Shown here: positions 15,817-64,000 of the stretch, one piece after another
How positions within the stretch are numbered: position 1 is the stretch's first letter
How the letters are laid out: each line of letters starts with the position of its first letter
NCBI GenBank assembly: GCA_964386905.1
Contig: CAYLUP010000002.1
Location: forward strand, 64,522 to 128,521
DNA: 64,000 bases
Direction of reading: 5' to 3'
DNA from: an uncultured Candidatus Saccharibacteria bacterium
Lineage (GTDB): Bacteria; Patescibacteriota; Minisyncoccia; Phycocordibacterales; UBA6899
Notes under the pieces: model-generated
Database searches by the model: none
Told to the model about the DNA's origin: nothing
Seen by the model: the letters and a program-made list of their open reading frames with translations, nothing else
Translations under genes and position numbers: made by a program

Positions 15817-15817
15817 T

Positions 15818-18847: not shown

Positions 18848-18851
18848 GCAT

Positions 18852-22028: not shown

Positions 22029-22030
22029 AA

Positions 22031-22056: not shown

Positions 22057-22136
22057 TTTCTTTCTATACCCATCTTATACACAGATATTCTATGGTCGAG
22101 GTTGCATAATAATGATAAAATAGATTCACGTTACGC

Positions 22137-23207: not shown

Positions 23208-23210
23208 TAT

Positions 23211-24431: not shown

Positions 24432-24432
24432 T

Positions 24433-25428: not shown

Positions 25429-25430
25429 AA

Positions 25431-25457
25431 ATAAACACGCACGTGTTTATTTTTTTG
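25431..25457 (+). terminator. Rho-independent terminator: aaacac-gcac-gtgttt followed by a T-run.
   Basis: Palindrome plus a T-rich tail immediately after the TAA. Confidence 0.5.
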
Positions 25458-25502
25458 TGCATAACTTCAAAGGCGAAAGAGATTGCATGGTATACTAAGA
25501 GT

Positions 25503-45665: not shown

Positions 45666-45704
45666 TACCGCCACAAAGTGGTGGTATTTTGTTATACTGT
45701 ATCT

Positions 45705-46993: not shown

Positions 46994-47034
46994 TTTATTC
47001 GAAGTGCCTCAGGTGCGAGGTACTTTTTATCATC

Positions 47035-48135
47035 ATGTTTATGTCAATTCTTATTTTCATTGTTATACTCCTCGTTCTTGTTCTTGCTCATGAGTTTGGA
47101 CATTTCATTATTGCAAAGAAGTCTGGGGCACGCGTTGATGAATTTGCTTTCGGCTTTCCACCAAAAATATTTTCAAAAAAGTATGGGGAAACGACATACG
47201 TTCTAAACGCTTTACCGATAGGTGGATATGTAAAGATCCATGGTGAAGATGCATCAGAAAAAGAATTAGATGAACAAAGAAGTCTCACTCATAAGCCTCG
47301 ATATGTACAAGCGGCAGTCATTCTTGGAGGTATCATTGCAAATATCCTGGTTGCGTGGATCCTCTTTTCGATCATTTTGATGATGGGTATGCAAACAAGT
47401 GTTGGAGCTCATCGTTTTGGAGAACTTCGTGATCCAAAAATTATCGTCACAGATGTCATACCAGAAAGTCCTGCTGCACAAGCAGGAATACTTCCAGGCG
47501 ATCGCCTTATTTCCGTTAGGTCCCTTCTTGATTCTCGCGCATCATCCCCATTGAACGATGTCTCAGATTTATCTGCATACATTTCCGAACAAGGTGGTGT
47601 CCCCGTGGTTCTTACGTCAGAGAGGCAAGGTGTTGTTATGAATAGTGAAATTACTCCACGCATTCTTGACACAACAGAGAGATTTTTGATCGGTGTTGCT
47701 ATGGACAAGGCAGGTGAGTTGAAGTTGCCTGTGCATCTGGCGATTGTGGAAGGCGCAATAAAAACGACAGATTATTTTATCGCAACAGCAGTCGGTATTT
47801 ATCATTTTATTGCTTCTGCAATAGTCGGTGAGGGGAGTATGAGTGAAGTGAGTGGGCCAGTTGGTATTGTACAGGCGGTTGGTAGTGCAGCATCGCTTGG
47901 TTTTACACATATTCTCTTATTTACCGCACTGATTTCTTTGAACCTCGCAGTTATCAACCTTGTTCCATTTCCGGCGCTTGACGGCGGGAGGTTTCTCTTT
48001 ATTTTGATTGAAAGTGTTACCCGAAAGAAGCTTCCTGCTTCAGTGACGACTTGGGCAAACTTTATCGGTTTCGCCTTACTGATGCTTCTGATGGTTGTTG
48101 TGACCTACCATGATGTCTTGAAGATGTTGAAATAA
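47035..48135 (+). CDS. rseP: RIP zinc metalloprotease RseP (site-2 protease, M50 family).
   Basis: HEFGHFIIAKKSG (HExxH), a PDZ domain (VIPESPAAQAGILPGDRLISV), and NLAVINLVPFPALDGGR (LDG motif). Confidence 0.85.
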   Translation: MFMSILIFIVILLVLVLAHEFGHFIIAKKSGARVDEFAFGFPPKIFSKKYGETTYVLNALPIGGYVKIHGEDASEKELDEQRSLTHKPRYVQAAVILGGIIANILVAWILFSIILMMGMQTSVGAHRFGELRDPKIIVTDVIPESPAAQAGILPGDRLISVRSLLDSRASSPLNDVSDLSAYISEQGGVPVVLTSERQGVVMNSEITPRILDTTERFLIGVAMDKAGELKLPVHLAIVEGAIKTTDYFIATAVGIYHFIASAIVGEGSMSEVSGPVGIVQAVGSAASLGFTHILLFTALISLNLAVINLVPFPALDGGRFLFILIESVTRKKLPASVTTWANFIGFALLMLLMVVVTYHDVLKMLK

Positions 48136-48165
48136 CCCCATGTTTTTGGGGTTATTTTTTTTAGA
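48136..48165 (+). terminator. Rho-independent terminator: aacccc-atgttttt-ggggtt followed by tttttttt.
   Basis: Hairpin and T8 run directly after the rseP TAA. Confidence 0.55.
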
Positions 48166-48313
48166 GAGAGAGTCACTTGTACAAAGAATTTTTACTGCTT
48201 CTGTGGATAGTATGGGAATATTCAGTATAATGGCTTTGTTGAGCTGTATAATTGGTACTCTTTCTGTGTAAAAATACACACAATTTTAGGAAAATGATGG
48301 TAAAATAGTTCTA

Positions 48314-51300
48314 ATGACCAAAACCTCGTGGAGGAACTGGTTTTCACGTTGCGTACGCAGGGTATTTTTCTCTTTGCGTGGCTTTTTCGTTGGGGCTCAG
48401 AATCATTCTGTCGTGCGTTTTGGTAGGAGGATTTGGGCACTTTTTCAGCAGTCGTTCCGAATGATTTCGACACAGAAGCGCTCAAAAATGGTGTGGATGT
48501 CTACTGCTGCTTTTGTGATTTTTCTTTCTGCAACAATGACCGTTTTTGCTTTGCGAGCGAAGGCGGAAAAAGAAGTTCACGCCTATATCAGTCCTTCGTA
48601 CGTGACCGGTGAGGGTTTTGAAAGAGTAGAAGCTGCACTTGTTCAGGATTTTTCTGTTGATGCGCGATTTTCTGATTTCACACCAGAATATGTTGCACGT
48701 GTCGCATTTGGCTCCTTTGCACAAACCGTAGAGGAGAGTGTTCAGGAGGAATTGCTTTCAAGCACAACAACGCCATCCGCAACGACGACAGAAAGCACGA
48801 GCGGTGCACCTGCAGATACTGGTGTTGTTCCTGCTGAAACAACGAGTGTTTCTGAGTCTTCGACCGTCCCAGCTTCAGAAGAAAGTTCTTCTGCGCCTTC
48901 TTTGGAAAATCCCATTGAAACAAATGGTGCTCAATCTGCACCAGAAGCACCGTCAACCGAACCGCTTTCATTTTTGCGTAGTATTGTTTCTCCAAAGACT
49001 ATCTTGGCTCAAGAGACACCAGAGAGTGCTCCTGTCTCTGTTGCCGAAGATACTCCTGAATCAACTCTCGTTGTCGAAGGAGTTGAAGCGGTGACTGCGC
49101 CTGTTCAAGATGACAACACTTTTTCGGTGGATGCGACTTCATCAGCAACAATTGTTTCTGATACGGTAAAAGAAGAAAAAGAAAATCGTGATCCATATGC
49201 GATTGCCTCGTGCTCTGTATTTTCTAAACCATGCCACATGGCTGTGTTTGAGGGCTTTGGAGTTGGCACGGAACTTTCTCAGTATCCTGTGAGAAATGCT
49301 GAGGTTGTATTTTCTGTTGCCGCAAAATCACTTCCAACAGAACAACACGATCGCCTTCTTGTCCGCGCGTATAAAAATGGTCGTTGGGTATTTTTGGGTG
49401 AGCATGTCGTTCGTGGTGAGACAGATAACGCATTTCGAGGAGGATATTTACGATTCCCACTTGAATTATCTTCATGGTCAGACTTGTCGGACATGATCGT
49501 AGTTGCTGAATATGTCCGTGAAGGCGAATCTGATTCAACTCTGTTGCTTGATGCTGCATGGGTGGACGTTGGTTTTGAGGCGGCAGAATCACCGGATGAT
49601 CTTGCATTGTTCTCTCCAAATGTAAAAAGCGCGTTGCTTTCTCGCGACGCAGAGCGTCGTGCAAAGGAGCGAGATACGCTTGATGTCGGTGCAGGTGCTG
49701 TTGTGCATTTTGAGAACACTATTTCTGATCTTCCGAGTGCAAAACTCCGCGTGGCAACAACGAAGGAAAAACATGCAGTTTTGGGAACAGGAGAAGAGTA
49801 TGTCGCGGTGACCAATTTTAGTAATGCAACCGAACAGGTGCGTTTGTCCTTTTTCTTCCCAGACGGAAATGGTCGAGTGACCTCACTTTCGAAATATGTT
49901 CATAATGCGCCGGTAAAAAATGTTGAGACAGAGGTGACTCCTATTGCATATGTGTGTGAGTCACCTTGGGTAATAGCATCTTCATCCCTCGACGTATCTT
50001 CAAATGAAGATGTTGGGATTTCTGAGTACACATGTCTGCAGACAGAAGAGAAGCGCTCATGTGCATCGCTTTCGGATGATGCAACAAACTGTTACTCAGA
50101 AGTGACGACAATGACTGACGCAAATGCGACCGTTTTCAGACGCGGGTTTTATGTCGATGCGATCACCGGGGGTCCGTTCTCTGATGAACAGAGCATATTT
50201 GGAAAGGCACTCAGTGCTTTGCTTCTTGATATGCCAGAAGGAATTATTCCATCATCATCTGCTGAGGTGTCTCATAGCCAGACGTACGATATCGAACCCG
50301 GAGCAACAAAGTATTTTAAATTCGCATACAATGTCCCATTAAATGCACGGAGCGATGTGTACATTCAAGCAGTCTCTTCTGGCGGTGCATATGGACTCTC
50401 AAAAATTGTTGCAGATGGATCATGGAACTGGAGGGTCCCTGTGGATGTCGGACTTCCATACGCAACGTTTGGAGAGGAGGCTGTTGTGCCGATTTCTTTG
50501 GATCGTATGCCTCAAGAGTTTTGGACAACGGTACATGAAGATGGCTTAGATATTCGTGTATCTGATGAGCGTGGCGTTGTTGAGCTCCCATCATGGGTAT
50601 CGGAGTTCAATTTTGCGCAACGGAAAGGGCTTGTATGGGTGCGATTGCCACATGGTTCTGGGGTCATGCCTCGCGTCTATCTCTATGCAGGGAACTCTGA
50701 AGCAGCCTCGAAGATGGCTCCAGAAAAACCTTTTCTTTCATCCAGTCTCATTGAGAGGGCCGTTGTGATGTCAGAAGACGAAGAGGTGTCTTCGGTGAAG
50801 ATCACTGCGCTTGCTGATGATACGCGTGTCCGCGTCGGAGATGCTGCGGAAAAGAATCTTGTGTACGGTGAGACTGTTCTTTATGAACATGTTCCTCACG
50901 GTGCACTCGTCTATGCAAATGGTCCAGTTGCTGTCCATGCGCTATCGTTGTCGTCTCGTGCCATTGCATTACCTTTTGGTGTGGCAGGGAACGAGTTCGG
51001 TATTGCGGAGAAGTATGGTGAGTTTTATGTTGCATCGACACGTCCAGAGGAATCAGCGCTTTCTCTTGATCAGAACGAAGAGGTACTTGTCCCATACGGT
51101 CTGACACATTTCTCAGAACACGAAAGTTCTGCTTTTTCGGTACGTCTTCCTTCTGTTGCCGCGTTGTTTGATGAACAAGAAATTCTCCCTCTTCTCTCGA
51201 GGACATCTGACGAGAGGTTGCGTTTTTCTGCTTCTGCTCTGCTCGATCAAAAGGCTGATGCTGTTCGTGCTGTTTGTCCGAATGGGTATGCATACGGCGT

Positions 51301-54300
51301 ATTTGACGTCTCTGGCGCATCTCTTGCAACGACAACTTGTGGAAATATCCTCAATGGTCCATTTGAACACGGCATGCTCCTTCGTGTTCTTCCGACTGTA
51401 GGAAAAACGTCTCCTGGTGCTCTGTTCTCCTACGTACTCCGAGGGAATGAGTATCCTATGCTTCAGTCTGCTGCGCTTTCGCGTGGGACTGCAGGGTTTG
51501 ATCCAGAGGTTGCTTTTGGAGCACCAGAGTTTGTGGTCCCAGGAGAGCATCGCATATTTGATATTGAAGGAGAGAAAGAGCGTGCGCATGTGAGTCGTTT
51601 TCTGAGTAAACAGCGAGAATTTGCTGCTGAAGAAAATCCAACATTCCGTTTTCAATATGTTCCTCAGTCAGGAGGGTTTTTCCGTACTCTCCGCTCTTTG
51701 GTTGGTGCAGCTCCTTTTGCAATTACGAATGTCTCGGTAGAGCAAGCGGGCGCAGTGCTCCCAATCACCCCTGTTGTTTCTTATGGGTCATCTCTTGAGT
51801 GGACGGTGACTATTGACAAGAAAGAAGCAACAAAGATTGTTCCTGGGAAATTACTTCTACGGATGACGATTAAAGAAGGCGGTCAGACCTACGAAGATGT
51901 GTATGATTTTTATTGGGGACTTCTTGCGGTGAATTTCAATAAAGCAACATACGAGCAAGGAGAGATAGCAGACATCTGGTTGGGGGCATTGTCAGAAACA
52001 GGAAACACTGTCTGTGATGCAAAACTCAAAATCTTCATCACTGATACTGCGAGTTCGACTGTTGAAGTTCCCGTAGTGCAGTCGGGAAAGTGTGATGGTA
52101 ATTCCGTTGTTGATGTTCCGGATTATTCCGCGTCATATCCCGTAGTTGATGTTGGCGTCCATTCTGTGCGCGTATTGCGTCTTGATGAACAAGATAATGT
52201 TATTGCAGAAGTGCGAAGTCACTTTAATGCCGTGTCCCGTTCTCCTTTTGTCATTGAGAGAAAGGGCCCAACGCGTATTAATCCGACCGCTCCCTACAGC
52301 ATGACGCTTCGCGTATTTGCACGTGAAGCTTATGAGGGGCAAATTGTTGAGCAGATTCCTGCTGATTTTGAGGTACTTGAAAGAGGTGGATCGACGTTGC
52401 GCTGGAAGGACGATTCTCAACAAATTAAAGAAGCGGTATGGTCTGTCAAGATGAAAGCTGGGGAAATCTATCAGTTTACCTATACGTTTGATGCTGCTGA
52501 CAAATCGCCGTACATCTATTTCCTCGGCCCTGCTCGTATTGGTGATACAGATTCGTTGTATATTGAGCCTCGTGAGTGGCAAATTGCATCTGACGTCGCA
52601 GGAAACATGCTCATCTACTGGGATGGTGGAACGACTCCACCAGGGTGGACATGTGTATCGTGTCTCGGCACTGATCCGTTCTATCAACGGTACCCAATGG
52701 GATCATCAACTCCGAGCATTAATGGTGGCGCAACAACACATACCCATACGTTTACGACATCGGTCAGTTCTGCGATTTACTCAACGTCAATTTTGGTGAA
52801 TACGGGAATTCCAGCAACATTGGTGTATAAGGACCACACACATGCGTTTACTCCGACATTTGCCACAGGCTCAAATCTTCCACCATCCATGTCTTTGCGC
52901 ATCTTGCGAGCGAACGCAGTGGGTGATGTTCCTATTCCGCAAAATGCAATTGTGATGTTTGAATCTACTCCTCCGTCTGGATGGACAACATATAGTACGT
53001 TGGATGGAAATTTCCCATATGGTGATTCTGGTATTTTCAATACGCAAGGAAGTGCGACTCATAGCCATGCACTTTCTGGCACACTTGGTACATATAGTGG
53101 AGGTTCGCTCTATCGCAGTACAACTTTTGGAATATACCCGAAGGTTGCGAATACTACTCACGGACATGCAGTCACAGCAACATCAACGAACACAATTTCA
53201 AATGACCCTCCATACGTGACATACATGCTCGGAAAAGCAAGCGCTGCAGGGGCACTTCCAAATGGAGCGATTACGATGTGGGATAACGACCCTGCTTCTG
53301 GATGGGTGCATTTGTCTGTCGATGGTGCGGTAATGAGTAATCGTTTTGTGAAGGCGATGAGTTCTGCAGGTGCAACGGGAGGGTTATCACATCACGAGCA
53401 TACAGATACGACCAATATCCCAACTGGAGCATCGAATTCAAATACAAGTTCTGCATCACTTTCTGGATCTTTTGGATCAAATCCAAATCATACACATACT
53501 GTTGACTATACCCTCTTTTCTGATGCAGTTACCCTTCCTCCATATCGTACGGTTGTCTTTGCAAAAAGAAGTGTTGGCGTGCCAGAATTTACACAAACAG
53601 CTTTCCGGTTTTACGATAATGTAAATGACCCACTTCCAGTTGATCCATGGCCAGCTGGTGCTGTAGATGTTGCAGAAGGGATGTCTATTGAAGATGTTGC
53701 TTATCGCATTAAGCCTGGTTCGACATTCAGACTTCGCGTCTCTGCACAAATCTCTAATGCAACAGCAACTGCAAGCACAACACCACTCAAACTTCAGTAT
53801 TCTACTGATGGGGCATGTTCTACTGCGCTCAACTGGAATGATGTTGGTACTCCTGGCGGCTCAGCTCCGCTTCGTGGATACGATAATACTCTTGTGTCAC
53901 AAGGCACTCAGTTGGCTAGTGTTGTATTGGCTTCAAGCACTTTGTCATCGGTGCAGTTCTATAGTGAATCTTCGTCAGCACAAGCATTCACACAGGATGC
54001 AGGAATTGGGACATATGCTGAGTTCGATTGGGTCTTGCAGGCAGGAACAAGTCTTGCATCATCTTCTCGATATTGTTTGCGTATGGTTGAGGGGAGTGGA
54101 AAAGTTTTCGGTCAATACAGCGCATTTCCAAGTTTTCTCTCAAATAGCGCGCCAATTGCTCCCGTGCTTCAGACACAATTTAATCATGCGAAGATCCTGA
54201 CGTTAACTCCGACGTTGACATTTGCAGCCTCGGATGAGGAGGGGAACCCAATGCACTATGCGATTGAAATTGACGATGATCCAAATTTTGGATCACCAGT

Positions 54301-57300
54301 CGTCTCGCATTCGACAACAAATAACTCAGCATATTTCAGCAACCTGACAACGCTAAGTAACAAAGCACCATATAACAACGCAGATACAATTCAGTACACT
54401 GTGCAGAATGGTGCGCTTGCGAATAATACAACGTATTGGTGGAGGGTTCGTGCGATGGATCCTACAGGCAGTACACAGTATGGGTTGTGGTCTAGCGCAC
54501 GTGCTTTTACAACGGACACTTCTCTCGCGACGTCGGCATGGTTCCAGACAACAGATGCACAGTTTGTACAAAATACGCTCGAGAATATTACTATTTCAGG
54601 AAATGCTGCACGGCTGACAGGGGGTCAAACCTCTGGCACGATGTATTCTCCTTCGATCGTCTTTAATGCGGGTCCAATGGGAACCGTATGGGGGAGTTTG
54701 CTCTTTACCGATGATGGGGGAGCTGGAATTACATACCAAGTTGAATACCAGGATGAGCAGCAGAACTGGGTTCTTATTCCAGACACTGCGTTATCTGGAA
54801 ATTCGACTGGGTTCGGAAGTTCCCCTGTGTCTCTTACAAGTGTTGACCCACAGTTTTATCCAGCAATTCGCCTGCGTGCAAATTTCACAAATAGTGGAAC
54901 GCCAGTACTTTCTGATTGGGGCGTGAATTGGGCATACAAAACACTTGCTCCAATCCTTTCATCACCATTCAATCATGCAAAGGTGAGTACAACTACACCA
55001 GCATTACTCTTTGCATCGACAGATCCATTGAATCGTCCAGTAACATACGAGGTACAGTACTCAACAGACCCGACATTTACCACTTCAACGACCTGTAATA
55101 GCGACTCTTCGTGTACTGCAGGTTTTAAGAATATTGATACCCCAGCAGACACTTCTCCGTTTACATCTGCAGAACGCGTCGAGTTTACCTTCCAAACTCC
55201 ACTAACAAATGGAACGACGTATTTTTACCGTGTTCGTGGATACGGCTTTGGAAGCGGGGCTTGGTCATTCTGGTCTGAAGTACGTGCATTCACTGTAGAT
55301 ACGGCAGCGACGACATACCCAACGTGGTTCCAAACGATGAAGGGACAATGGGATGCTGATACACTTTCTGGAACGTATGCAAACCCTTCTCATAGCGTCG
55401 CTGTTGCAACGACAAGTGATCGCGTGCTGGTGGTATATGGGGACGGCTCCAATAGTAGGCCGAAGTACCGATTTTACGAAAATGGTGTACTCGGCACGGC
55501 AAAGGAGATGCTTTCCATTAACTCGACTGTGCTTTGGGCGGTAGCACGACCCTCACTTGTTAATGACCAGTTTGTGGTTGGAACAATGGGGGCTGACCGT
55601 GATGTGCGATTTCAGGTGTTTGAAAATGGCATTTGGTCACGACTCTTTACTCTGACCGATACATCACCTTCCGACAAGAGGCGAAGTTTTGATGTTGCGT
55701 ATGAATCGCAAAGTGGTCGTGCAGTGGCTGTTGCTTGCAGTGGCACAGATGCAGTCTATGCAATATTTGACGGTTCTACCTGGGGAAGTGTACAGAATCT
55801 CGATTTACCTTTTACAACAAACTGCGAACTGGTAAAGATGGCTTCAAGCCCAACACAGAATCAGATTATTGCGCTCTTCCGCAACACTGGTTCAACATTT
55901 CGTGCAGAGGTATGGAATGGAACTCAGTGGGATAATGGTTCCGCAATGAGTTTCAGCGCTTCCGCACAGATTCAAGAGCCAGCGCACGATGGTATGGCGA
56001 TTGAGTATGAACGAACGAGTGGGAAGGCAGTTGCGGTTGTATCAAATAACACGACGAGAGGATTTCGATATCGTGTATGGAGTGGAAACAACTGGGGTAC
56101 AGAGACCGCGTATGCGCTTCTCGGGGGAAACGATGGAAATAGAACAAATGCGCAATTCGAATGGGGAAATTTGAGACGCAGTCCAACAAGTAATGATTTG
56201 ATGCTTTGTGGCATCTCACAGTATTCTCCGACAGATGATGGTGCATATACGGAATTTGTTCGATGGAATGCAGTAACACCAGCATGGGAGCCAACAACGG
56301 CTTCAAAACTTGGTGAATACTGGCCATATTCTCGCCATGCGCAATCAAATGATTGTGTTTATGAAACGAAATCAGGACGTGCAAACAAACTCGTATATGT
56401 TGCTGATGAATCATGGCAGGTTGCTGACGGAAGTGCCTCATACAATAGAACTATATTTGACGTACTTTCTAATACGACAAATATGGCAAGCGCTTGGCAA
56501 TCTGGAGCATCATATACTACTCGAATTTGGTCTACGTATGCTGCATATCGATGGTATGCGGGAGAGACATGGACATCACGTCTTGAACGAGCATCGTACT
56601 CTGGAGATATTTTAGGGATTTCCTTAATGCGAAATTCTTTGAGCTATATTTTCCGTATGTGGAATGGTTCTGCCTGGTCTTCCGCAATTACGATGGGTGC
56701 ATCTTCTGTAACGACAAAGCCGTATGGTCAGCCGTATGACATGTCTGCGCAGCAAGGACTAACCCAAGGAAAAGTATTTTCATCTCCAATCGTTTTTGCA
56801 GATGGAAATGGTCCTTCATGGAGACAGGCCCGCTTTACCACGACACGACCTGTTGGGACAACGGCATTGATTTCTGTTGAATATGAATCGTCTCCTGGGA
56901 ATTGGGAACGAGTTCCAGATGCGGTTATTCCTGGAAACTCAACAGGAACATCAACAAGCCCGATTGATTTATCTGGCTTGAACTCTTCCGTCTACAGTGT
57001 GATTCGCCTCCGTGCGGATTTAACCTGTAATGGTTTTGCTACATGTCCAACTCTTGATGACTGGACAGTGGAGTGGGCGGCGGGTCTTAATATTTCTGGT
57101 ATTGCACGAGACAATGATCGTACGACTGCACTTACGAGTGGTACGGTAAAGGTCGCCGTAAACGGTGTTGAGCAGGTTGGAAAAACAGGGGCAATTTCTG
57201 GAACAGGAACATGGACAATTTCTGGCGTGAACTACAAGAATGGAGAGACTGTTACTGTGTGGATCGACAATCCAGGAGTAGCAAATCGCGCTGTTTCTGT

Positions 57301-60300
57301 TGTAAAGTATGCTGGTGCCGGAAATCTCTCAAATGTGGAGTTGTCACGACGCTGGCTCACGATTGGTGATTCGGGACAGGCTGGACAAACAATCACAAAT
57401 GCAGATCTGAAGCTGTTTGATAATTATAATGAATCATTAGCCCAAACACGTGCGGACATCTTCTTTAATGTCGACGGTTCAGACAATCTTACTGCATGTG
57501 CAAGTGCACCGTGTAGTGATGCGTCTATCGTCGTGGCAACAGGAACAACCTGGAGGCCGAAAGCATCAGGAACAAGTGTAAGTACACTTTCTTCTCTTGT
57601 ATTAAATGGAGAGGTGACAGCTGATGCAAATACGATAAAGATTGGAGGTGATTGGAGGAATACAGGAACATTTACCCCTGGAACATCTGTTGTGATTTTT
57701 ACTGCAACCTCAAGTACACGAATACTCAATAATACAGGTGCTGCACAATACAAATTTTACTCAGTGACATTCGGAGAGGGTTCGTCTTCAGCGACATGGC
57801 AATTGCAATCACCGCTGTACACGAATGGAGATCTTGTGGTGAATTATGGTACGCTTTCTCCGCTTTCACAGCCTATTTCGATTGAGAAGAGTTTATCTCT
57901 TGGTTCGAACGGGGTATTCCTAAAGGGGACAGCAACAACAACATTCCTTGGAACTGCTGTTGCGACATGGTCTGACTTGACTGCTCTGCAGCAAGACATG
58001 GGAAATGTGCTTGTTGATGGTTCGCCAAAGACACTTACCCTAAGTACCCCCGCAAAAGCAACCTCACTCACCATTGCAGATGGAGATACGTTTGCATTTG
58101 GAGTGAACACGTTAACACTTTCTTCGCACTTCACAAATAATGGATATATTAATTCCGGTTCGGGGCGCCTCTCTATTGCCGCATCTGGAACAGCTAATGT
58201 GAAGCAGGGCGGACAGACGTTGAATAATGTGACACTTGCAAGCGGGACAGTGACTTGGATTGATGCACATGCAACAACCACGGGTGATCTCTTGATCTCG
58301 GGTGGGGCAGTAAACCTGCCGGCACAATCACTCGCGGTGGGAGGAAGCTTCTTGCACACGGCTGGATCTTTCGCAGCTCCGCTGACAACGCGCATGACAT
58401 CGAATGTATCAGGAAAGCAGCTTTCTCTTCTGTCGTCACTTCAGACTCTTGAGTTTGTTGGCACTGGAGCCTGGTCATTTATCTCATCAGCAACCACAAC
58501 TGGGACAACGAGTATCCAGTCTGGGTCTGTGACACTCCCTTCTGGCATACTCGCCGTTGGAGGAAATCTCGTCGTGTCTCCAACTGCGACATTGCAATCA
58601 AATACTGGGACAGTCAGAATGTATGGAGCATCTGCGACCATACAGCTCAACGGAAAACAGCTCTCATCTCTTGTTGTGGCATCTGGGTCTTCGGCGGCAC
58701 TACAAGATGCGACGGCGACATTCCTCGGGTCTCTTACTGTTGATGCTTCTGGCGTGTTTACTCCCGCATCAAGCAGCACCTTGACCATTGGCGGTTCGTT
58801 AATAAATAATGGATCATTTATTGCAAATGCATCTCATGTCATTATGAATCGTGCAGCAGGTCCTGCGACTCTGAGTATTGGTTCATCCATGTTGAGCAAG
58901 TTGACTATCTCTGGTGCGGGAAGTTTCAGTATTATAGGAAATACTCGCGTGACATCCGATTTCGCATTAGGAAATGTAGGAGCCTTTAGTATGGAGAGCG
59001 GACGCGAGTTACGAGTTGATGGGTTTTATACAACAACTGCACAACAGGCAAATACAACATGGACGGGGTCTACGCTGCGTTTGACTTCTGGCGCAACCAT
59101 GAGTGCAAACACAAAAACAACAGGTGGGGATAGTTACGGAAGTATCATTCTGGATGAAAATACTCAATTACGTTTATGGAACTCTGATGCAGTATCAATA
59201 ACAACGAATGCGGGAAGTAGCGTGTATGCGCAAAACTGGGCAAACGTATCGGGAGCGCTTCGCATTTATGGAACCTATACTCAGCAATCAGGTACTGCAT
59301 GGTGGAGTTATGCAACTGATTTTGATGGCACAGCACTTCCATCTGGAAGTGAGCGAACTGCTACTGTCGCCATTGCGCCAGGATCATCTGTCGCTTTTGC
59401 AACATCATCCGCTCTTGCTGTGATTGGAGATGCTGGCGCGTCAACCACAGTGGCAACGATTGGTGTAGGAAATTATGCTATGAGTTTTGCTTCGTCTACA
59501 CTCTCTGCCCAATTTGCAACATTCAGTGGTATGAATACCTCTGGACTCTCGTTGTCTGGTGCAACAAATATTGCAGTATTGAGCGATGTGTCGTTTACAA
59601 CTGATATTAATGCGGGAAATATCATGACGTTTACAGCGGATGTTGTAAACGCGAATGCAGGAGAACAGTATTATCGCGTCGGCTTTGACAGATCTTCTCT
59701 TTCTGCGACAAACATCCGTGTTTTGTCAGCAACAACGCAATCTCTTCGTTTTAAACAGCATTATGGAAATATTGACGGGGAATCATTTGACAATGATCCA
59801 ACGGGGAATCCAGGAGAAATTCGATGGGATGATTCAAATTATCTCATCACGATTTCAGGTACCGTTTATAGTGACGCAGGTGTCACGCCAATGGATGCTT
59901 CTGTTTGCGATGGAGCAACCCCAGCAGTAACGATAAAAGTTTCTGGTGGTGGATCTTTCACTGGTCCATGTGATGTTGGTGGGACATTTAGTATCCCTAA
60001 TGTCTCCTTTACTGGAGAAACAACGATGTCTATCTTCCTGGATGACACTGGTGCGCAGGCAGTAACGGTAACACGAGGCGCGTCTGTTGATTTGTCGGGA
60101 ATCCGGCTCTATCAAAATCGTGTCATTCTTCGTCATGAAGACGTGACCCCAATGACTATCGCAGCATTGTCTGATTTTGACGTGGATGATGATAGCGACA
60201 TGATCTTTACTGCAAATGGAGGTACTCTGTCTGTTCCAGGTACGGCTGAGCTTTGGGTTTGGAGTGGAAAAACATTCACTCCTGGGGGAAACGTGACAAC

Positions 60301-63300
60301 GGCAGCTGGTGGAACTATTGGATATGGTGGTGCGTTTCACTTAGACAATAGTGCCACTTATACCGCATCTTCTGGTGAAATTATCACCATAGGTGGACGA
60401 TTCCAAATGGATTCAAGCGCAATACTGAATGCTGCATCATCAACTTTTGTCTTTAATCCATCAGATACACGAACATTGACTGCAACCGCCCCAATTGTGT
60501 TCCATAATCTAGAGAAGACTGGCGTTGGAACACTAACCGTGAGTTCGACAATGGCAATCGGTGGTACATTCACGATTACAATGGGAACATTGTCTGGTGT
60601 TGGGAGTATTACTGCACAACAAGGGATAGTGGGAGATGGAACTGTATCTCTTACAGGGGGGACAGTGACGCTTCCCAATGGTGGATTCTTTGGTGGAAAT
60701 ACTGCCTGGACAGTCAATAATTTGGTTCTTGGAGATACGGGTACTTCTACAACCATAAAGACTGGAGCCGGGACAACGACAGTACGAGCATTACTCACAG
60801 TGAGGAGTCAACACAGTCTTGATCTCAATGCAACGCCCTTGGTGTTTACTGGATCAAATACTGTCCTGTCTGTTCTGGGATCTATTGATACTACCGGTGC
60901 AACCATTACTTATGCGCCAACAGGAACAGTGAGTGTTGCAAATATTCCGTATACCAATCTTTCTTTCATGGGAACAGGAACAAGCACCTTGCCTGCTATG
61001 CAGTTGCAGGTTGCTGGAAATATGACTATTGGAGGCGGAGCATCAACCCCAAAAGTGACAGCTCTGGTCAATGACCCAACAATTACCGTTGGCGGAAACA
61101 TTTCCATTGCCTCTGGCGCTCGATTTACTGCATCTGATGTTGGAACACTATTTGTTTCCGGGAGCTGGACAAATGCAGGAGTCTTTACACACTCACTTGG
61201 CTCTGTTCAGTTCACTGGGGGTGGAGTTAAGACAGTGAATCCAGGGTCCTCTCCGTTCGGGAATATTTCCTTCGCAGACGATCTTGGCTCATGGACTATT
61301 TTGGAAAATGCTACTGCTACAAATATGGTTATTGCGTCAACCTCTGCATTTACCATGGCAAGCGGGAGAACTTTGGAAATTACAGGAAGTTTCAGTAACG
61401 CTGTTGGTGGCACTGCGACAACATGGACTGGTGCAACGCTGTTTGTGAATAGTGGAACACGTTCGGAAATAAATACAAAGACTGCAGGTGCTGATACGTA
61501 TGATATTGTTCGTGTTGGGGCTAATACACAGACAGTGTTCTGGAACTCATCATCAACGCAGTTTGTTGCACAGCCTACTGGTGGTGCACTTTCTCTGAAT
61601 CACGCAGGAATCGCTGGTGATGCCTATGTGTTTGGTGATTACACTCGAAGCACGGGCACAGAGTATTGGAGTTATTACAAGGATTTTGATGGAGCAGTCT
61701 TAAATGCGGGTGACTTACGAGCTCCACGGATTCGATTCGCACCATCTTCTACAGCATCATTTGTTGGTACAAGTGCGATTGAACTTGTTGGTGTTGCTTC
61801 TGCAACAACAACTGTTGAGGCGCTCTCAGGGTCCTACGGATTGAATTTTGGTGGGGCAACATCAACACTTCAGTTTGTAGATTTCTCTGGCATGAATGCA
61901 ACAGGCATTCAGTTTACTGGTTCTGGAAAAGTGACACAGTTTGATGATATTGTGCTTCGAAACCCTTCTGGGGTTGGGACAATGGTGTCTCTTGCAGCCT
62001 CTGTCATTACGGCAAATCCACTTCGTACAACGTATCGCAATGCATTCATTGCACCAGGCGGAACAAATATTTCTGTGACTGGAACAACAACATCCGCTTG
62101 GCGTATTCGCAACCACTACGGTGGGAGAGATGGTGAAGCGTTTGATGGTGATCCTGCAGGAGATCCGGGATATGTTATTTGGGATGATTCTGCTGCACAG
62201 ATTTATATTTCTGGAAAAGTACTCCAAAGTGATGGTGTAACAGTGTCGTCTGCGTGTAATGGTGTTTCTCAGTATGTTGCATTAAAAGTGCAAGGGTCTG
62301 GAACATTGACGTCTGCATGTAGTGCTGTTGATGGGAGTTACTCAATCGGTCCGATTGTATATGCTCCGTATGACACTCTTGCTGTATACACTACAGCTGC
62401 AAGCGGGGTTCAGGCGGTTTCATATGCATACCGTCCGATGACGAATATTGGTGATTATGATTTGTACGAACGTACGATTATCCTTCGAAATGAACAAGAT
62501 GCGATTACCAATGCCGGCATAAACTCCTATGATAAAGATAATGACGCAAATATCCCGGTACGGGTGACGGGGAGTGCGCTCGTTACAGATACAAATTCGA
62601 AAGTCATCGTCTGGGATGGAAAGAAATACCAGCCACAAGGATCAGTCACTGTAGGAAGCAACATGAATGCTTCCTCTATCGACGGAGACGTTGAACTGCG
62701 TACGCAGGCATCTTGGATAACTGGTGCTGGGGAACAATACACCATTGGAGGAGACCTTGTTGTTCTTTCACAAGGCCAGGTTCTTGGTATGTCGGGAGAA
62801 TTCATCTTTACTTCGGCTGTTGCCGGGAAATCAGTGTCAGCGCTTTCTTCTACAACGTTGCCGTCACTTCGCTTTAATGGTACGGGGAGCTGGTCTCTGT
62901 CTGGTTTCGCATCAACCACTGGGACACTTCTCGTTTCTCAGGGAACCGTAGCGCTCCCGGCAAGCACCTTCGGTATTGGTGGGAGTTTCACTAATCAGGG
63001 TACTGTACAATCAAATAACGGAACACTATTCTTTGAGGCAACAACAACAGGGAATCAGATTCGCACAAATGGGAGCACATTTGGAACGCTTCTATTTACG
63101 GGAGTGGGCTCATGGGAGTTTATGGATTCCGCAACCACGACTGGGGCATTCACTGTTGCGTCTGGTACCGTGAAGCTTCCGGCAGGATCGTTATCTGTTG
63201 GTCTCGACTTCGAGAATACTGGAGGTTCGTTTATCGCAAACGGTGGTACGGTCATTGTGCGTGGAGCTGGCACACGGAAGGTCGCTCCGGGCGGGTCAGC

Positions 63301-64000
63301 TTTCCACACACTTCGAGTTGAAAATGGGGATTATGTACTTGGTGTACAGCATGCAACATCGACTGGCGATGTGACTGTTGCTTCGGGTTCACTTGAATTA
63401 CCAACGGAGCGATTCGCTGTTGGGGGTTCATTCAGAAATTCGGGAACCTTTATTGCAGGCGCTTCGTCGACTGTAATCATGAATGCGACATCAACAGGGA
63501 AGATTATAAACCCAGGAACATCATCATTTACCCATGTCATTGTTCAGGGTCCTGGGGGTGGATTCACGTTGGAGTCTAGTGCGACAAGTACGGGGGCATT
63601 TGAAATAAAAACAGCAAATGCATTCGTTGTCTCGCCATCGGTTCGATTGGTGGTTCGTGAGCAGTTCTTGAATGCTGTTGGTGGTACGTGGACCGGGTCT
63701 ACGCTCAGATTAGAGAAGGTGGGAACATCAACCATAAACCTGAAGACAGACCCGGGTGCGGCATATAATACTGTTGAGCTTGGTCCTGGTGCACAGGTTC
63801 GCTCGTGGAAGTCATCTTATGGAACCGTAAACTTCGCATCGTCTTCTGCAATCTATTCACAGAATGACAATAACGTAAATGGCGCACTTCGTATCTATGG
63901 AGAGTATCGCAATACTGCGACAACAGACCACTGGTCCGCAACAACTGACTTTGATGGCTCCGCAGTCGCATCTCGTGCAGCCTCTGTCCGATTTGCATCT
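48314..64000 (+). CDS. Giant cell-surface protein gene, 3'-partial. It has at least 5229 codons in the window and is absent from the ORF track because it has no in-window stop.
   Basis: Frame open from TAG at 48287-48289 to the window end; the ATG-to-stop track lists no frame-2 ORF anywhere in 48.3-64 kb. I checked about 12 kb of lines by hand at 48314-53580, 56641, 58981, 60301, 62221 and 62461-62580. Start is uncertain: the first ATG is at 48314, and candidates 48461 or 48488 precede the signal/TM MVWMSTAAFVIFLSATMTVFAL. The product has an acidic S/T/P-rich linker, Cys-containing domains, three phage-tail-collar-like HxH modules, Fn3-like pairs (FNHAK...YWWRVRA), W-rich propeller-like repeats, prealbumin-like domains (ISGTVYSDAGV...), beta-helix-like T/G/S-rich repeats and ~2.3-kb super-repeats. 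The small ORFs listed on both strands here are overlap shadows of this frame. Confidence 0.75.
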   Translation, partial: MTKTSWRNWFSRCVRRVFFSLRGFFVGAQNHSVVRFGRRIWALFQQSFRMISTQKRSKMVWMSTAAFVIFLSATMTVFALRAKAEKEVHAYISPSYVTGEGFERVEAALVQDFSVDARFSDFTPEYVARVAFGSFAQTVEESVQEELLSSTTTPSATTTESTSGAPADTGVVPAETTSVSESSTVPASEESSSAPSLENPIETNGAQSAPEAPSTEPLSFLRSIVSPKTILAQETPESAPVSVAEDTPESTLVVEGVEAVTAPVQDDNTFSVDATSSATIVSDTVKEEKENRDPYAIASCSVFSKPCHMAVFEGFGVGTELSQYPVRNAEVVFSVAAKSLPTEQHDRLLVRAYKNGRWVFLGEHVVRGETDNAFRGGYLRFPLELSSWSDLSDMIVVAEYVREGESDSTLLLDAAWVDVGFEAAESPDDLALFSPNVKSALLSRDAERRAKERDTLDVGAGAVVHFENTISDLPSAKLRVATTKEKHAVLGTGEEYVAVTNFSNATEQVRLSFFFPDGNGRVTSLSKYVHNAPVKNVETEVTPIAYVCESPWVIASSSLDVSSNEDVGISEYTCLQTEEKRSCASLSDDATNCYSEVTTMTDANATVFRRGFYVDAITGGPFSDEQSIFGKALSALLLDMPEGIIPSSSAEVSHSQTYDIEPGATKYFKFAYNVPLNARSDVYIQAVSSGGAYGLSKIVADGSWNWRVPVDVGLPYATFGEEAVVPISLDRMPQEFWTTVHEDGLDIRVSDERGVVELPSWVSEFNFAQRKGLVWVRLPHGSGVMPRVYLYAGNSEAASKMAPEKPFLSSSLIERAVVMSEDEEVSSVKITALADDTRVRVGDAAEKNLVYGETVLYEHVPHGALVYANGPVAVHALSLSSRAIALPFGVAGNEFGIAEKYGEFYVASTRPEESALSLDQNEEVLVPYGLTHFSEHESSAFSVRLPSVAALFDEQEILPLLSRTSDERLRFSASALLDQKADAVRAVCPNGYAYGVFDVSGASLATTTCGNILNGPFEHGMLLRVLPTVGKTSPGALFSYVLRGNEYPMLQSAALSRGTAGFDPEVAFGAPEFVVPGEHRIFDIEGEKERAHVSRFLSKQREFAAEENPTFRFQYVPQSGGFFRTLRSLVGAAPFAITNVSVEQAGAVLPITPVVSYGSSLEWTVTIDKKEATKIVPGKLLLRMTIKEGGQTYEDVYDFYWGLLAVNFNKATYEQGEIADIWLGALSETGNTVCDAKLKIFITDTASSTVEVPVVQSGKCDGNSVVDVPDYSASYPVVDVGVHSVRVLRLDEQDNVIAEVRSHFNAVSRSPFVIERKGPTRINPTAPYSMTLRVFAREAYEGQIVEQIPADFEVLERGGSTLRWKDDSQQIKEAVWSVKMKAGEIYQFTYTFDAADKSPYIYFLGPARIGDTDSLYIEPREWQIASDVAGNMLIYWDGGTTPPGWTCVSCLGTDPFYQRYPMGSSTPSINGGATTHTHTFTTSVSSAIYSTSILVNTGIPATLVYKDHTHAFTPTFATGSNLPPSMSLRILRANAVGDVPIPQNAIVMFESTPPSGWTTYSTLDGNFPYGDSGIFNTQGSATHSHALSGTLGTYSGGSLYRSTTFGIYPKVANTTHGHAVTATSTNTISNDPPYVTYMLGKASAAGALPNGAITMWDNDPASGWVHLSVDGAVMSNRFVKAMSSAGATGGLSHHEHTDTTNIPTGASNSNTSSASLSGSFGSNPNHTHTVDYTLFSDAVTLPPYRTVVFAKRSVGVPEFTQTAFRFYDNVNDPLPVDPWPAGAVDVAEGMSIEDVAYRIKPGSTFRLRVSAQISNATATASTTPLKLQYSTDGACSTALNWNDVGTPGGSAPLRGYDNTLVSQGTQLASVVLASSTLSSVQFYSESSSAQAFTQDAGIGTYAEFDWVLQAGTSLASSSRYCLRMVEGSGKVFGQYSAFPSFLSNSAPIAPVLQTQFNHAKILTLTPTLTFAASDEEGNPMHYAIEIDDDPNFGSPVVSHSTTNNSAYFSNLTTLSNKAPYNNADTIQYTVQNGALANNTTYWWRVRAMDPTGSTQYGLWSSARAFTTDTSLATSAWFQTTDAQFVQNTLENITISGNAARLTGGQTSGTMYSPSIVFNAGPMGTVWGSLLFTDDGGAGITYQVEYQDEQQNWVLIPDTALSGNSTGFGSSPVSLTSVDPQFYPAIRLRANFTNSGTPVLSDWGVNWAYKTLAPILSSPFNHAKVSTTTPALLFASTDPLNRPVTYEVQYSTDPTFTTSTTCNSDSSCTAGFKNIDTPADTSPFTSAERVEFTFQTPLTNGTTYFYRVRGYGFGSGAWSFWSEVRAFTVDTAATTYPTWFQTMKGQWDADTLSGTYANPSHSVAVATTSDRVLVVYGDGSNSRPKYRFYENGVLGTAKEMLSINSTVLWAVARPSLVNDQFVVGTMGADRDVRFQVFENGIWSRLFTLTDTSPSDKRRSFDVAYESQSGRAVAVACSGTDAVYAIFDGSTWGSVQNLDLPFTTNCELVKMASSPTQNQIIALFRNTGSTFRAEVWNGTQWDNGSAMSFSASAQIQEPAHDGMAIEYERTSGKAVAVVSNNTTRGFRYRVWSGNNWGTETAYALLGGNDGNRTNAQFEWGNLRRSPTSNDLMLCGISQYSPTDDGAYTEFVRWNAVTPAWEPTTASKLGEYWPYSRHAQSNDCVYETKSGRANKLVYVADESWQVADGSASYNRTIFDVLSNTTNMASAWQSGASYTTRIWSTYAAYRWYAGETWTSRLERASYSGDILGISLMRNSLSYIFRMWNGSAWSSAITMGASSVTTKPYGQPYDMSAQQGLTQGKVFSSPIVFADGNGPSWRQARFTTTRPVGTTALISVEYESSPGNWERVPDAVIPGNSTGTSTSPIDLSGLNSSVYSVIRLRADLTCNGFATCPTLDDWTVEWAAGLNISGIARDNDRTTALTSGTVKVAVNGVEQVGKTGAISGTGTWTISGVNYKNGETVTVWIDNPGVANRAVSVVKYAGAGNLSNVELSRRWLTIGDSGQAGQTITNADLKLFDNYNESLAQTRADIFFNVDGSDNLTACASAPCSDASIVVATGTTWRPKASGTSVSTLSSLVLNGEVTADANTIKIGGDWRNTGTFTPGTSVVIFTATSSTRILNNTGAAQYKFYSVTFGEGSSSATWQLQSPLYTNGDLVVNYGTLSPLSQPISIEKSLSLGSNGVFLKGTATTTFLGTAVATWSDLTALQQDMGNVLVDGSPKTLTLSTPAKATSLTIADGDTFAFGVNTLTLSSHFTNNGYINSGSGRLSIAASGTANVKQGGQTLNNVTLASGTVTWIDAHATTTGDLLISGGAVNLPAQSLAVGGSFLHTAGSFAAPLTTRMTSNVSGKQLSLLSSLQTLEFVGTGAWSFISSATTTGTTSIQSGSVTLPSGILAVGGNLVVSPTATLQSNTGTVRMYGASATIQLNGKQLSSLVVASGSSAALQDATATFLGSLTVDASGVFTPASSSTLTIGGSLINNGSFIANASHVIMNRAAGPATLSIGSSMLSKLTISGAGSFSIIGNTRVTSDFALGNVGAFSMESGRELRVDGFYTTTAQQANTTWTGSTLRLTSGATMSANTKTTGGDSYGSIILDENTQLRLWNSDAVSITTNAGSSVYAQNWANVSGALRIYGTYTQQSGTAWWSYATDFDGTALPSGSERTATVAIAPGSSVAFATSSALAVIGDAGASTTVATIGVGNYAMSFASSTLSAQFATFSGMNTSGLSLSGATNIAVLSDVSFTTDINAGNIMTFTADVVNANAGEQYYRVGFDRSSLSATNIRVLSATTQSLRFKQHYGNIDGESFDNDPTGNPGEIRWDDSNYLITISGTVYSDAGVTPMDASVCDGATPAVTIKVSGGGSFTGPCDVGGTFSIPNVSFTGETTMSIFLDDTGAQAVTVTRGASVDLSGIRLYQNRVILRHEDVTPMTIAALSDFDVDDDSDMIFTANGGTLSVPGTAELWVWSGKTFTPGGNVTTAAGGTIGYGGAFHLDNSATYTASSGEIITIGGRFQMDSSAILNAASSTFVFNPSDTRTLTATAPIVFHNLEKTGVGTLTVSSTMAIGGTFTITMGTLSGVGSITAQQGIVGDGTVSLTGGTVTLPNGGFFGGNTAWTVNNLVLGDTGTSTTIKTGAGTTTVRALLTVRSQHSLDLNATPLVFTGSNTVLSVLGSIDTTGATITYAPTGTVSVANIPYTNLSFMGTGTSTLPAMQLQVAGNMTIGGGASTPKVTALVNDPTITVGGNISIASGARFTASDVGTLFVSGSWTNAGVFTHSLGSVQFTGGGVKTVNPGSSPFGNISFADDLGSWTILENATATNMVIASTSAFTMASGRTLEITGSFSNAVGGTATTWTGATLFVNSGTRSEINTKTAGADTYDIVRVGANTQTVFWNSSSTQFVAQPTGGALSLNHAGIAGDAYVFGDYTRSTGTEYWSYYKDFDGAVLNAGDLRAPRIRFAPSSTASFVGTSAIELVGVASATTTVEALSGSYGLNFGGATSTLQFVDFSGMNATGIQFTGSGKVTQFDDIVLRNPSGVGTMVSLAASVITANPLRTTYRNAFIAPGGTNISVTGTTTSAWRIRNHYGGRDGEAFDGDPAGDPGYVIWDDSAAQIYISGKVLQSDGVTVSSACNGVSQYVALKVQGSGTLTSACSAVDGSYSIGPIVYAPYDTLAVYTTAASGVQAVSYAYRPMTNIGDYDLYERTIILRNEQDAITNAGINSYDKDNDANIPVRVTGSALVTDTNSKVIVWDGKKYQPQGSVTVGSNMNASSIDGDVELRTQASWITGAGEQYTIGGDLVVLSQGQVLGMSGEFIFTSAVAGKSVSALSSTTLPSLRFNGTGSWSLSGFASTTGTLLVSQGTVALPASTFGIGGSFTNQGTVQSNNGTLFFEATTTGNQIRTNGSTFGTLLFTGVGSWEFMDSATTTGAFTVASGTVKLPAGSLSVGLDFENTGGSFIANGGTVIVRGAGTRKVAPGGSAFHTLRVENGDYVLGVQHATSTGDVTVASGSLELPTERFAVGGSFRNSGTFIAGASSTVIMNATSTGKIINPGTSSFTHVIVQGPGGGFTLESSATSTGAFEIKTANAFVVSPSVRLVVREQFLNAVGGTWTGSTLRLEKVGTSTINLKTDPGAAYNTVELGPGAQVRSWKSSYGTVNFASSSAIYSQNDNNVNGALRIYGEYRNTATTDHWSATTDFDGSAVASRAASVRFAS
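52600..53580 (+). other. Triple phage tail-collar-like (MdpB-type) module inside the giant CDS.
   Basis: Three consecutive ~95-aa units: IYWDGGTTPPGWTCVSCLGTDPFYQRYPMGSSTPSINGGATTHTHTF; IVMFESTPPSGWTTYSTLDGNFPYGDSGIFNTQGSATHSHAL; ITMWDNDPASGWVHLSVDGAVMSNRFVKAMSSAGATGGLSHHEHTD. A trailing NPNHTHTVDY follows. The pattern (hydrophobic-x-W/F ... PxGW ... G ... G ... HxH) is that of phage tail collar domains. Confidence 0.5.
59050..61420 (+). repeat. Super-repeat copy A (~2.37 kb, ~790 aa) within the giant CDS.
   Basis: Ordered markers TWTGSTLRLTSGATMSANTKTTGGDSYG ... DFDGTALPSGSERTATVAIAPGSS ... SAQFATFSGMNTSGLSLSGATN ... HYGNIDGESFDNDPTGNPGEIRWDDSNYLITISGTVYSDAGV recur in the same order in copy B. 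Confidence 0.6.
61420..63690 (+). repeat. Super-repeat copy B (~2.27 kb) within the giant CDS.
   Basis: TWTGATLFVNSGTRSEINTKTAGADTYD ... DFDGAVLNAGDLRAPRIRFAPSST ... TLQFVDFSGMNATGIQFTGSGK ... HYGGRDGEAFDGDPAGDPGYVIWDDSAAQIYISGKVLQSDGV. Each marker is collinear with copy A at a ~2.3-2.4-kb offset. The DNA has diverged while the protein shows moderate identity. Confidence 0.6.
63690..64000 (+). repeat. Super-repeat copy C (start only; continues beyond the window).
   Basis: TWTGSTLRLEKVGTSTINLKTDPGAAYN ... YGEYRNTATTDHWSATTDFDGSAVASRAASVRFAS repeats the opening markers of copies A and B. Confidence 0.5.

Follow-up and report, generated by a model that had tools for sequence, protein, structure and literature searches.

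A giant surface-protein gene of a Minisyncoccia bacterium encodes a candidate lectin-bearing adhesion fibre

The 64,000-nucleotide stretch of DNA analysed here (the window; contig CAYLUP010000002.1, positions 64,522 to 128,521) ends inside a giant gene. On the plus strand, a frame opens with an ATG at 48314 and runs through base 64000, giving 5,229 codons and zero stops on translation; the closest in-frame stop 5' of the ATG is a TAG at 48287. The longest rival open stretch in the six frames of the window has 1,412 codons, and the chance of a 5,229-codon open run is, by our own arithmetic, about 1e-128 (at 45% GC, where some 5.5% of random codons are stops). The open frame that a preliminary description of this DNA had reported from 48314 past the end of the window is therefore real.

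The visible part of this gene can be compared with a complete relative, the 6,106-residue protein P0017, whose gene lies entire on its own contig. Residues 16-5227 of the giant protein align with residues 2-5181 of P0017 in one BLASTP segment with 52.7% identity, and this collinearity excludes a frameshift, a pseudogene or fused neighbours over the visible 15.7 kb. The preliminary description had considered that a stop or frameshift might break the frame; none lies between 48314 and 64000, and P0017 is collinear throughout. Because the window breaks off opposite residue 5181 of P0017, which has 6,106, some 925 codons (about 2.8 kb) should still be to come, with an expected product of about 6,150 residues. 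Beyond the equivalent of the window edge, P0017 carries the remainder of the third copy of a long super-repeat and a strong DUF2341 match (E 1e-17). From these comparisons we conclude that the window holds the first 85% or so of one intact gene with a predicted length of about 18.5 kb.

The assembly is consistent with this conclusion. Between 48000 and 64000 the DNA has no direct repeat of at least 25 nt, and the internal protein copies described below are only 30-35% identical, so that nothing near-identical is present that could collapse in assembly. An independent Logan assembly (L001; run SRR27710297, 4.6 kb) differs from window positions 45537-50110 at a single one of 4,574 nt. It confirms the junction between the upstream RseP-like gene and the giant gene as well as the first 1.8 kb of the latter, and the start codon is called identically.

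To place the protein among known sequences, an exhaustive HMMER search was made with residues 3501-4300, one 800-residue repeat unit, against 1.84 billion representative proteins. It returned 661 related protein clusters at E<=1e-3 (169 of them at E<=1e-30), and the top matches were proteins of 5,300-7,700 residues with the repeat at the equivalent position. The similarity extends far beyond the repeat: P0018 is 40% identical to the giant protein over 4,345 columns and P0025 38% identical over 4,252. The best relatives with organism names are MEX0931679.1 (Candidatus Paceibacterota, 5,649 residues) and MFZ2886416.1 (Minisyncoccia bacterium), which both fall in the phylum Minisyncoccota (Patescibacteria, or candidate phyla radiation, CPR), in line with the earlier suggestion that the bearer is a small-genome uncultivated bacterium. 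In the databases these named relatives are labelled only "DUF2341 domain-containing" or "hypothetical", and our literature searches found no paper on a giant DUF2341-labelled Minisyncoccota family. By sequence, then, the giant protein belongs to a large, conserved and functionally uncharacterised family. The gene had been singled out as the most unusual feature of the window; it was rightly flagged, but the case for extreme unusualness is weakened by the existence of a large family already in public databases and by the recognition of giant surface proteins in the CPR (PMC13059738, PMC11573180).

A word-indexed protein search gave a very different picture. Residues 290-1450 returned one weak, DUF2341-based match (P0001, annotated GH43/DUF377), and a conserved domain within this range, N3, returned no match. 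These negatives reflect a limitation of the tool rather than orphan status, since dozens of clear relatives turn up for the same regions in the exhaustive search. More generally, the word index seems to cover very long proteins poorly, and "orphan" results for giant open reading frames (ORFs) appear untrustworthy without an exhaustive search.

The layout of the protein is given in Table 1, together with a group of upstream genes considered below. Pfam, NCBIfam and PHROGs searches on ten tiles of the giant protein found nothing beyond DUF2341 and the Fn3-like units, save for a sub-threshold match to TIGR02601. The internal repeats were missed by self-BLASTP and found by tile-wise phmmer. Against PDB sequences, a single-sequence search was as empty as the profile searches with the HxH sub-repeats, the propeller, the super-repeat and N3.

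Table 1. Features of the giant gene and of the upstream partner cluster, by position in the window (residue numbers are those of the giant protein).
Feature	Coordinates	Strand	Basis and remarks
Promoter-like site TGGATA-16-TATAAT	48204-48231	+	Consensus scan, 10/12; in the 178-nt gap after the RseP-like gene; pattern match only
Giant ORF, stopless to the window edge	48314-64000	+	About 85% of a predicted gene of about 6,150 codons; collinear with P0017
Hydrophobic segment, residues 59-82	48488-48559	+	Kyte-Doolittle
Acidic S/T/P/E-rich linker, residues 140-295	48731-49198	+	S 17%, E 14%, T 14%, P 10%
N-terminal globular region, residues 296-1089	49199-51580	+	Includes DUF2341
DUF2341, residues 743-800	50540-50713	+	Pfam PF10102, E 1.8e-7, 31.9 bits (cut-off 23.4)
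Domain N3, residues 1090-1430	51581-52603	+	Motif DFYWGLLAVN; 22 family members among the matches listed
HxH module, residues 1429-1757	52598-53584	+	Three sub-repeats of about 107 residues, each with two HxH and a closing LPPY strand
Domain D5, residues 1757-1945	53582-54148	+	28 family members among the matches listed
Fn3-like 1 (1947-2091), D7 (2100-2208), Fn3-like 2 (2210-2338)	54152-55327	+	Self-match, Pfam
Predicted beta-propeller, residues 2340-2812	55331-56749	+	Eight W-x-G-x-x-W repeats of about 49 residues; AF2 model; lectin-like fold
Second D7 (2815-2923) and conserved domain of about 165 residues (2924-3090)	56756-57583	+	Internal match
G/T/S-rich lead-in, residues 3091-3513	57584-58852	+	Internal matches to 4830-5140; stackable 73-75-residue units; fold inferred
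Super-repeat copy 1, residues 3514-4301	58853-61216	+	Self-comparison, family alignment
Super-repeat copy 2, residues 4304-5064	61223-63505	+	32% identical to copy 1 over 602 columns
Super-repeat copy 3, start, residues 5065-5229	63506-64000	+	35% identical to the start of copy 1; ends at the window edge
Fn3/PAP-N protein	14335-15816	+	Pfam, synteny
ABC ATPase	17510-18847	+	Pfam, synteny; unusually long (445 residues)
MacB/FtsX permease	18852-20060	+	Pfam, synteny
Two unknown secreted proteins	20148-22028, 22137-23207	+	Synteny
DUF4215 and dockerin protein	23211-24431	+	Pfam, synteny
Cohesin-like anchored protein	25443-27125	+	Signal peptide and C-terminal membrane anchor

A hint at function comes from the tryptophan-rich region in the middle of the protein, which had been called propeller-like and is indeed predicted to form a beta-propeller. 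Its AlphaFold2 (AF2) model, built from a 13-sequence family alignment, is all-beta, with a pLDDT of 76 and a pTM of 0.83; the count of eight repeats is taken from the family alignment. When the model was compared with the PDB by Foldseek, 17 of the top 20 matches were sugar-binding propeller lectins (Photorhabdus PLL and PHL, Burkholderia BP39L, Aleuria AAL), with E values of 2.9e-9 to 1e-7, a probability of 1.0 and a TM-score on the target of 0.60-0.67. Blades built on tryptophan-rich repeats are characteristic of propeller lectins. The region has no Pfam match and no PDB sequence-profile match at E<=10. The model thus describes an eight-repeat relative of the PLL-type lectins by predicted fold, rather than a member, by sequence, of the PLL family with its seven blades. 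Although the PLL/PHL, BP39L and AAL/AFL lectins are its best structural matches, PLL and AAL lectins are stand-alone proteins of about 340 residues with seven (PLL) or six (AAL) blades, whereas the propeller of the window is a 470-residue domain inside a giant protein.

The N-terminus of the giant protein is consistent with export. Across all 5,229 residues, a 19-residue Kyte-Doolittle window exceeds 1.6 at residues 59-64 only, and these lie in the sole hydrophobic segment of the protein (residues 59-82), which has a basic N-terminal region before it and A-K-A/E after it; the motif AKAEKEVHAY at this point is kept in P0017. We predict that the segment serves as a Sec signal peptide or else as a signal anchor, much as the preliminary description had supposed, and the acidic S/T/P-rich stalk that it placed behind the anchor is likewise recovered in the composition of the S/E/T/P-rich residues 140-295. 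Residues 290-720, which follow, are conserved in 10 family members among the matches listed. Among the non-repetitive domains of the family, N3 is the most widely conserved, with 58 invariant columns in the family alignment; its profile finds no match among PDB sequences.

The modules around the propeller are repeated in part. The two Fn3-like units match one another at E 9e-28 in the tile-wise phmmer comparison. Unit 1 matches Ig_Rha78A_N above its Pfam cut-off (36.4 bits versus 27.4), while unit 2 matches Pur_ac_phosph_N at 24.5-25.5 bits, under the cut-off of 30. The Fn3 pair of the earlier account can accordingly be kept, one unit being above threshold and the other homologous to it. D7, a domain of about 108 residues, stands on both flanks of the propeller (residues 2104-2208 versus 2815-2923, E 2e-19), and residues 2923-3090, after its second copy, are conserved in at least 30 family members.

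Domain D5 has a counterpart elsewhere in the window, being 31% identical to residues 874-1069 of an ORF at the left edge (2-4240, plus strand). This ORF has at least 1,412 codons, is open at the edge and lacks a Pfam match, and would encode another big surface-type protein. Its domain of about 195 residues (874-1069) matches residues 1757-1950 of the giant protein, as well as P0017, P0018 and P0025, at 31-41% identity. We considered whether the ORF might be the tail of a second family member and rejected the idea, as it shares only this one domain. It had been missed because the ORF list used demands both ends of a frame.

Between N3 and D5 lies a module in which His-x-His (HxH) motifs recur. 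Its sub-repeats follow the pattern I..[FW]D..P.GW..G.F..GG..H.H..(~25 residues)..HTH..LPPY..V. When 18 sub-repeats, drawn from six modules, are aligned, the second HxH never varies and the first hardly does, and all twelve histidines per module are conserved. Homologues of the module are P0003-P0011; its relatives include a partial Saccharibacteria protein with two modules as well as small secreted proteins of 480-630 residues. The AF2 model of the module (pLDDT 62, pTM 0.60) has no significant structural neighbour among known structures by Foldseek, and the sub-repeat profile found nothing real among PDB sequences. Repeated HxH motifs in a beta-rich module do recall the HxH sites and collar of phage tail fibres (the T4 gp37 tip, 2xgf, and gp12; PF07484). 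In those trimeric fibres each site is made of six histidines, as in the gp37 structure, and the three sub-repeats of the window module could mimic such a trimer. By this analogy they plausibly pack as a single-chain pseudo-trimer, in which the twelve histidines would form two putative six-histidine metal sites.

The module had originally been described as triple phage-tail-collar HxH repeats. The threefold HxH architecture stands, but the collar identity is not supported: residues 1401-1800 have no Pfam Collar match at E<=5 and no PHROG match at E<=0.1, and 0 of 14 HxH homologues carry a Collar annotation. We also came across a stand-alone triple-HxH secreted protein of 484 residues with a TasA/SipW-type N-terminus (L004 10001-11455; L005, L006 4127-5581). 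Its gene lies between those for a Peptidase_M73 protein (camelysin/TasA-like) and an S26 signal peptidase, on a non-CPR-looking contig rich in PAS/HisKA sensors. The presence of the module in so unlike a surface system suggests that it is mobile between very different surface systems.

The C-terminal half of the visible protein is built of super-repeats of about 790 residues, present in 2.4 or more copies, in a layout shared by P0017, P0018, P0025 and P0031; the orthologues, too, have 2.4 copies. In the orthologues copy 3 spans about 330 residues and is followed by a DUF2341-containing C-terminal region. Each super-repeat has a conserved "...HYGN..GE.FDNDP.G.PG.I.WDDS" and then "ISG.VY.D.G....C....C", and each copy has an insert of about 150 residues. 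A periodicity of 74 residues (z 5.9, residues 4790-5110) is consistent with three beta-solenoid rungs of about 24 residues. TIGR02601 matched 1 of 10 super-repeat copies, at 16.9 bits, under its cut-off of 19.85; none of the ten copies matches a Pfam beta-helix family, and the super-repeat profile finds nothing among PDB sequences. CarboxypepD_reg (PF13620) and related families gave no match at E<=5 in the tiles or at E<=0.1 in the ten copies. We take a beta-solenoid shaft as the probable form of this region. The earlier label "beta-helix-like" is a reasonable inference from the 74-residue periodicity and the sub-threshold TIGR02601 match; "prealbumin-like" is also a reasonable reading, for which the ISGTVYSD...C...C motif is suggestive only.

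Searched against genome and metagenome contigs, the last 400 visible residues found distant relatives only (L002, L011, L012). These solenoid-repeat relatives, 32-35% identical over about 220-260 residues, lie outside the CPR; one (L002 10001-10768, 32%) is in a Flavipsychrobacter metagenome-assembled genome (JAJNBJ010000008.1, Bacteroidota), implying that this repeat type is not confined to Minisyncoccota.

The genes leading up to the giant gene are of a housekeeping kind. Directly upstream, on the same strand, are genes for MreB, a DNA polymerase III delta'-like protein (holB-like), ribosome recycling factor and an RseP-type M50 protease, and farther upstream lie fmt, def, uppP and a tRNA. 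Many ORFs of the window have no Pfam match, among them two near MreB and def/fmt that also show no similarity to the giant protein (41097-44561, plus strand, 1,154 residues; 38964-40994, minus strand, 676 residues). The product of the longer one has an internal hydrophobic segment near residue 710.

In relatives the surroundings are different. At the loci of P0025, P0018 and P0031 (L008, L009 and L010), the giant gene is preceded by genes for unknown proteins, a dockerin/Big protein, HSP20 and a cohesin protein, and is followed by those for an Fn3/PAP-N protein, an ABC ATPase, a MacB/FtsX permease, two unknowns and a DUF4215-dockerin protein. A tblastn search of the window with these neighbours located homologues at 4481-8224 and 14335-27125, at 25-66% identity, and detected no HSP20 homologue. 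In the window, then, the giant gene does not stand between the cohesin protein and the Fn3/ABC/FtsX genes. That the cluster is apart here and adjoining in relatives points to rearrangement, which does not exclude homology. The partner-cluster proteins carry signal peptides, which, with the conserved linkage, speaks for a surface system of several proteins, its genes shuffled in this genome. Several secreted products of the window carry dockerin or DUF4215; dockerin type I is found in small secreted proteins at 23211-24431 (plus strand) and 28164-28847 (minus strand), alongside the cohesin-like protein at 25443-27125. The sequences hint that cohesin and dockerin form a surface assembly here that has nothing to do with degrading cellulose.

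These observations lead us to propose that the giant protein is an extracellular, lectin-bearing adhesion fibre of a Minisyncoccia (Paceibacteria, Patescibacteria/CPR) bacterium, a reading to which we give a probability of roughly 0.6. The protein would be exported by Sec, and its N-terminus would either hold it at the membrane or, after cleavage at A-K-A/E, allow its release. The acidic linker might span the wall, and the globular modules together with the G/T/S-rich repeats (a probable beta-solenoid of about 24-residue rungs in 74-residue units) would make up a shaft tens of nanometres long. Such a shaft could present carbohydrate-binding modules, with the propeller halfway along it and, judging from orthologues, a DUF2341 and ConA-like region at its distal, C-terminal end. 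The propeller and the distal region may then bind glycans of a host or partner cell, or a polysaccharide substrate, while the two putative six-histidine metal sites of the HxH module might stiffen the fibre. The cohesin, dockerin and MacB-type ABC gene products would probably assemble with the giant protein or service it at the surface. A role in attachment to a host or partner, raised in the preliminary description, is plausible, and the lectin-like propeller would make it more specific. It also fits the literature: bacterial proteins of more than 5,000 residues, once nonribosomal peptide and polyketide synthases are set aside, mostly serve attachment or belong to the surface (PMC11573180), and the CPR has very large proteins that are directed to the surface, carry adhesion domains and count as adhesion candidates (PMC13059738).

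Several points weigh against this proposal. The lectin assignment is a fold similarity of a predicted model, at 11-13% sequence identity; there are eight repeats here versus seven PLL blades, and generic propellers (nitrite reductase, Kelch, sialidases) match as well, at E of about 1e-7. No curated model confirms a solenoid or "prealbumin" fold, and the C-terminal head is known from orthologues, being outside the visible part of the gene. The partner cluster (14335-27125) is not adjacent here but sits 21-34 kb upstream, with housekeeping genes between. In addition, the experiments on host attachment in this phylum have so far pointed to type IV pili (PMC13293708).

Among the alternatives, the giant protein might instead be an envelope scaffold, serving as a backbone on which dockerin proteins are mounted, in either a cohesin-dockerin assembly at the surface or a coat resembling an S-layer. 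In three relatives the gene directly follows that for a cohesin-domain protein and lies amid those for dockerin-bearing secreted proteins; the window carries the same cohesin and dockerin proteins, the cohesin-like one with a signal peptide and a C-terminal anchor, and the conserved length and order of the family are what a structural component would show. The giant protein itself, however, has no cohesin or dockerin module detectable by Pfam, its lectin-like propeller and DUF2341 region point outward, to ligands, and its gene lies at least 21 kb from the cohesin and dockerin genes. We regard a scaffold as an unlikely primary role, noting that the scaffold and adhesion readings are not mutually exclusive. 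Just as tentative is a more far-reaching form of the adhesion reading, in which the giant protein, the cohesin, dockerin and Fn3 proteins and the MacB-type ABC transporter would together be an undescribed, pilus-independent host-attachment apparatus, with the HxH module as a new single-chain, pseudo-trimeric metal-clamp fold lacking solved relatives and the eight-bladed propeller as a new class of host-specificity lectin.

We consider it distinctly improbable that the protein is an enzyme-bearing weapon that degrades the cell wall of prey or host, as has been proposed for giant genes of Omnitrophota and predators. In its favour, giant genes in uncultivated bacteria that depend on a host have been connected with the breakdown of cell walls (bioRxiv 10.1101/2023.11.21.568195), some Minisyncoccota are parasites (PMC13293708), and the weak match P0001 bears its GH43/DUF377 annotation. 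Against this, Pfam, NCBIfam and PHROGs identify no catalytic domain in the 5,229 residues, nor was one detected in the C-terminal 957 residues of the orthologue, and the precomputed Pfam matches of family members are DUF2341 and Ig-like only. An origin from phage, whether as a gene resembling a tail fibre or as a piece of a prophage or tailocin, is rejected as very improbable: the HxH motifs are what resembles a phage fibre, and the Pfam and PHROG searches of their module returned nothing. It is scarcely credible that the frame arose from faulty assembly, that the gene is a pseudogene or that neighbouring genes were fused. The source contig is metagenome-assembled, the protein is repetitive and the gene's end lies out of view; yet the DNA itself lacks direct repeats of at least 25 nt and the protein copies have diverged, the independent assembly agrees across the 5' end, one collinear alignment with the complete orthologue spans 5,212 residues, and dozens of relatives share length and order.

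If the adhesion-fibre reading is right, it bears on a large group of organisms. Minisyncoccota (CPR) account for a large share of bacterial diversity and live mostly attached to other cells, and to our knowledge type IV pili are the sole attachment devices studied in them so far; a second attachment system beside the pili would be of interest, if true. The giant gene presumably takes up 1% or more of a genome that we estimate at roughly 1 Mb, and this share, with the conservation of length and domain order across many Minisyncoccia, argues for strong selection on it. It is already known that the family exists in public databases, under uninformative names, and that giant CPR surface proteins are discussed as candidate attachment devices. 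What we add is the family assignment, the predicted full length, the rejection of the tail-collar label, the lectin-like eight-repeat propeller, the HxH module without a structural neighbour and the linked cohesin/dockerin/ABC cluster. The propeller, the DUF2341 regions and the histidine-rich module are expressible targets with which to probe what Minisyncoccia cells bind. There is also a practical lesson, in that ORF lists that drop ORFs at contig ends and word-indexed searches both miss giant genes of this kind.

Finally, the protein can be set beside known systems. With the other giant proteins of Minisyncoccota it has in common the super-repeats, propeller, Fn3 pair, N3 domain and DUF2341. 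In some members the HxH module or the propeller is missing or other inserts are present, and the window gene differs in standing apart from the cohesin/Fn3/ABC cluster that flanks the gene in relatives; otherwise there is no essential difference. The very large proteins of Absconditicoccaceae (Vampirococcus, Strigamonas) are similar in having a signal or membrane segment and adhesion modules (Fn3, ConA-like), and they also come from ultra-small episymbionts, with host recognition as their proposed role (PMC13059738). They belong to another class of the phylum, however, and, compared by description, contain integrin, fibrinogen C and calcium-stabilised adhesin repeats (PMC13059738).

More distant parallels are found in other bacteria. 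The giant proteins of Gram-positive bacteria (Apilactobacillus kunkeei Giant1-5 and serine-rich repeat adhesins; PMC12863079) and the TIGR02601 adhesins are likewise extracellular and elongated, with 3,000-8,000 residues, and share with the window protein a solenoid region, probable in our case, and a glycan-binding role, which for the window protein is predicted. In Giant1-4 the solenoid is N-terminal, whereas the repeats of the window protein fill its C-terminal half, and no relationship can be detected by sequence. The giant genes of Omnitrophota and predators (bioRxiv 10.1101/2023.11.21.568195; PMC10066038) resemble the window gene in being very long genes of ultra-small, host-dependent, uncultivated bacteria and in having dockerin and cohesin modules in their context. 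Their products, in contrast, reach tens of thousands of residues and are linked to cell-wall-degrading domains, whereas the searches of the window protein detected no catalytic domain.

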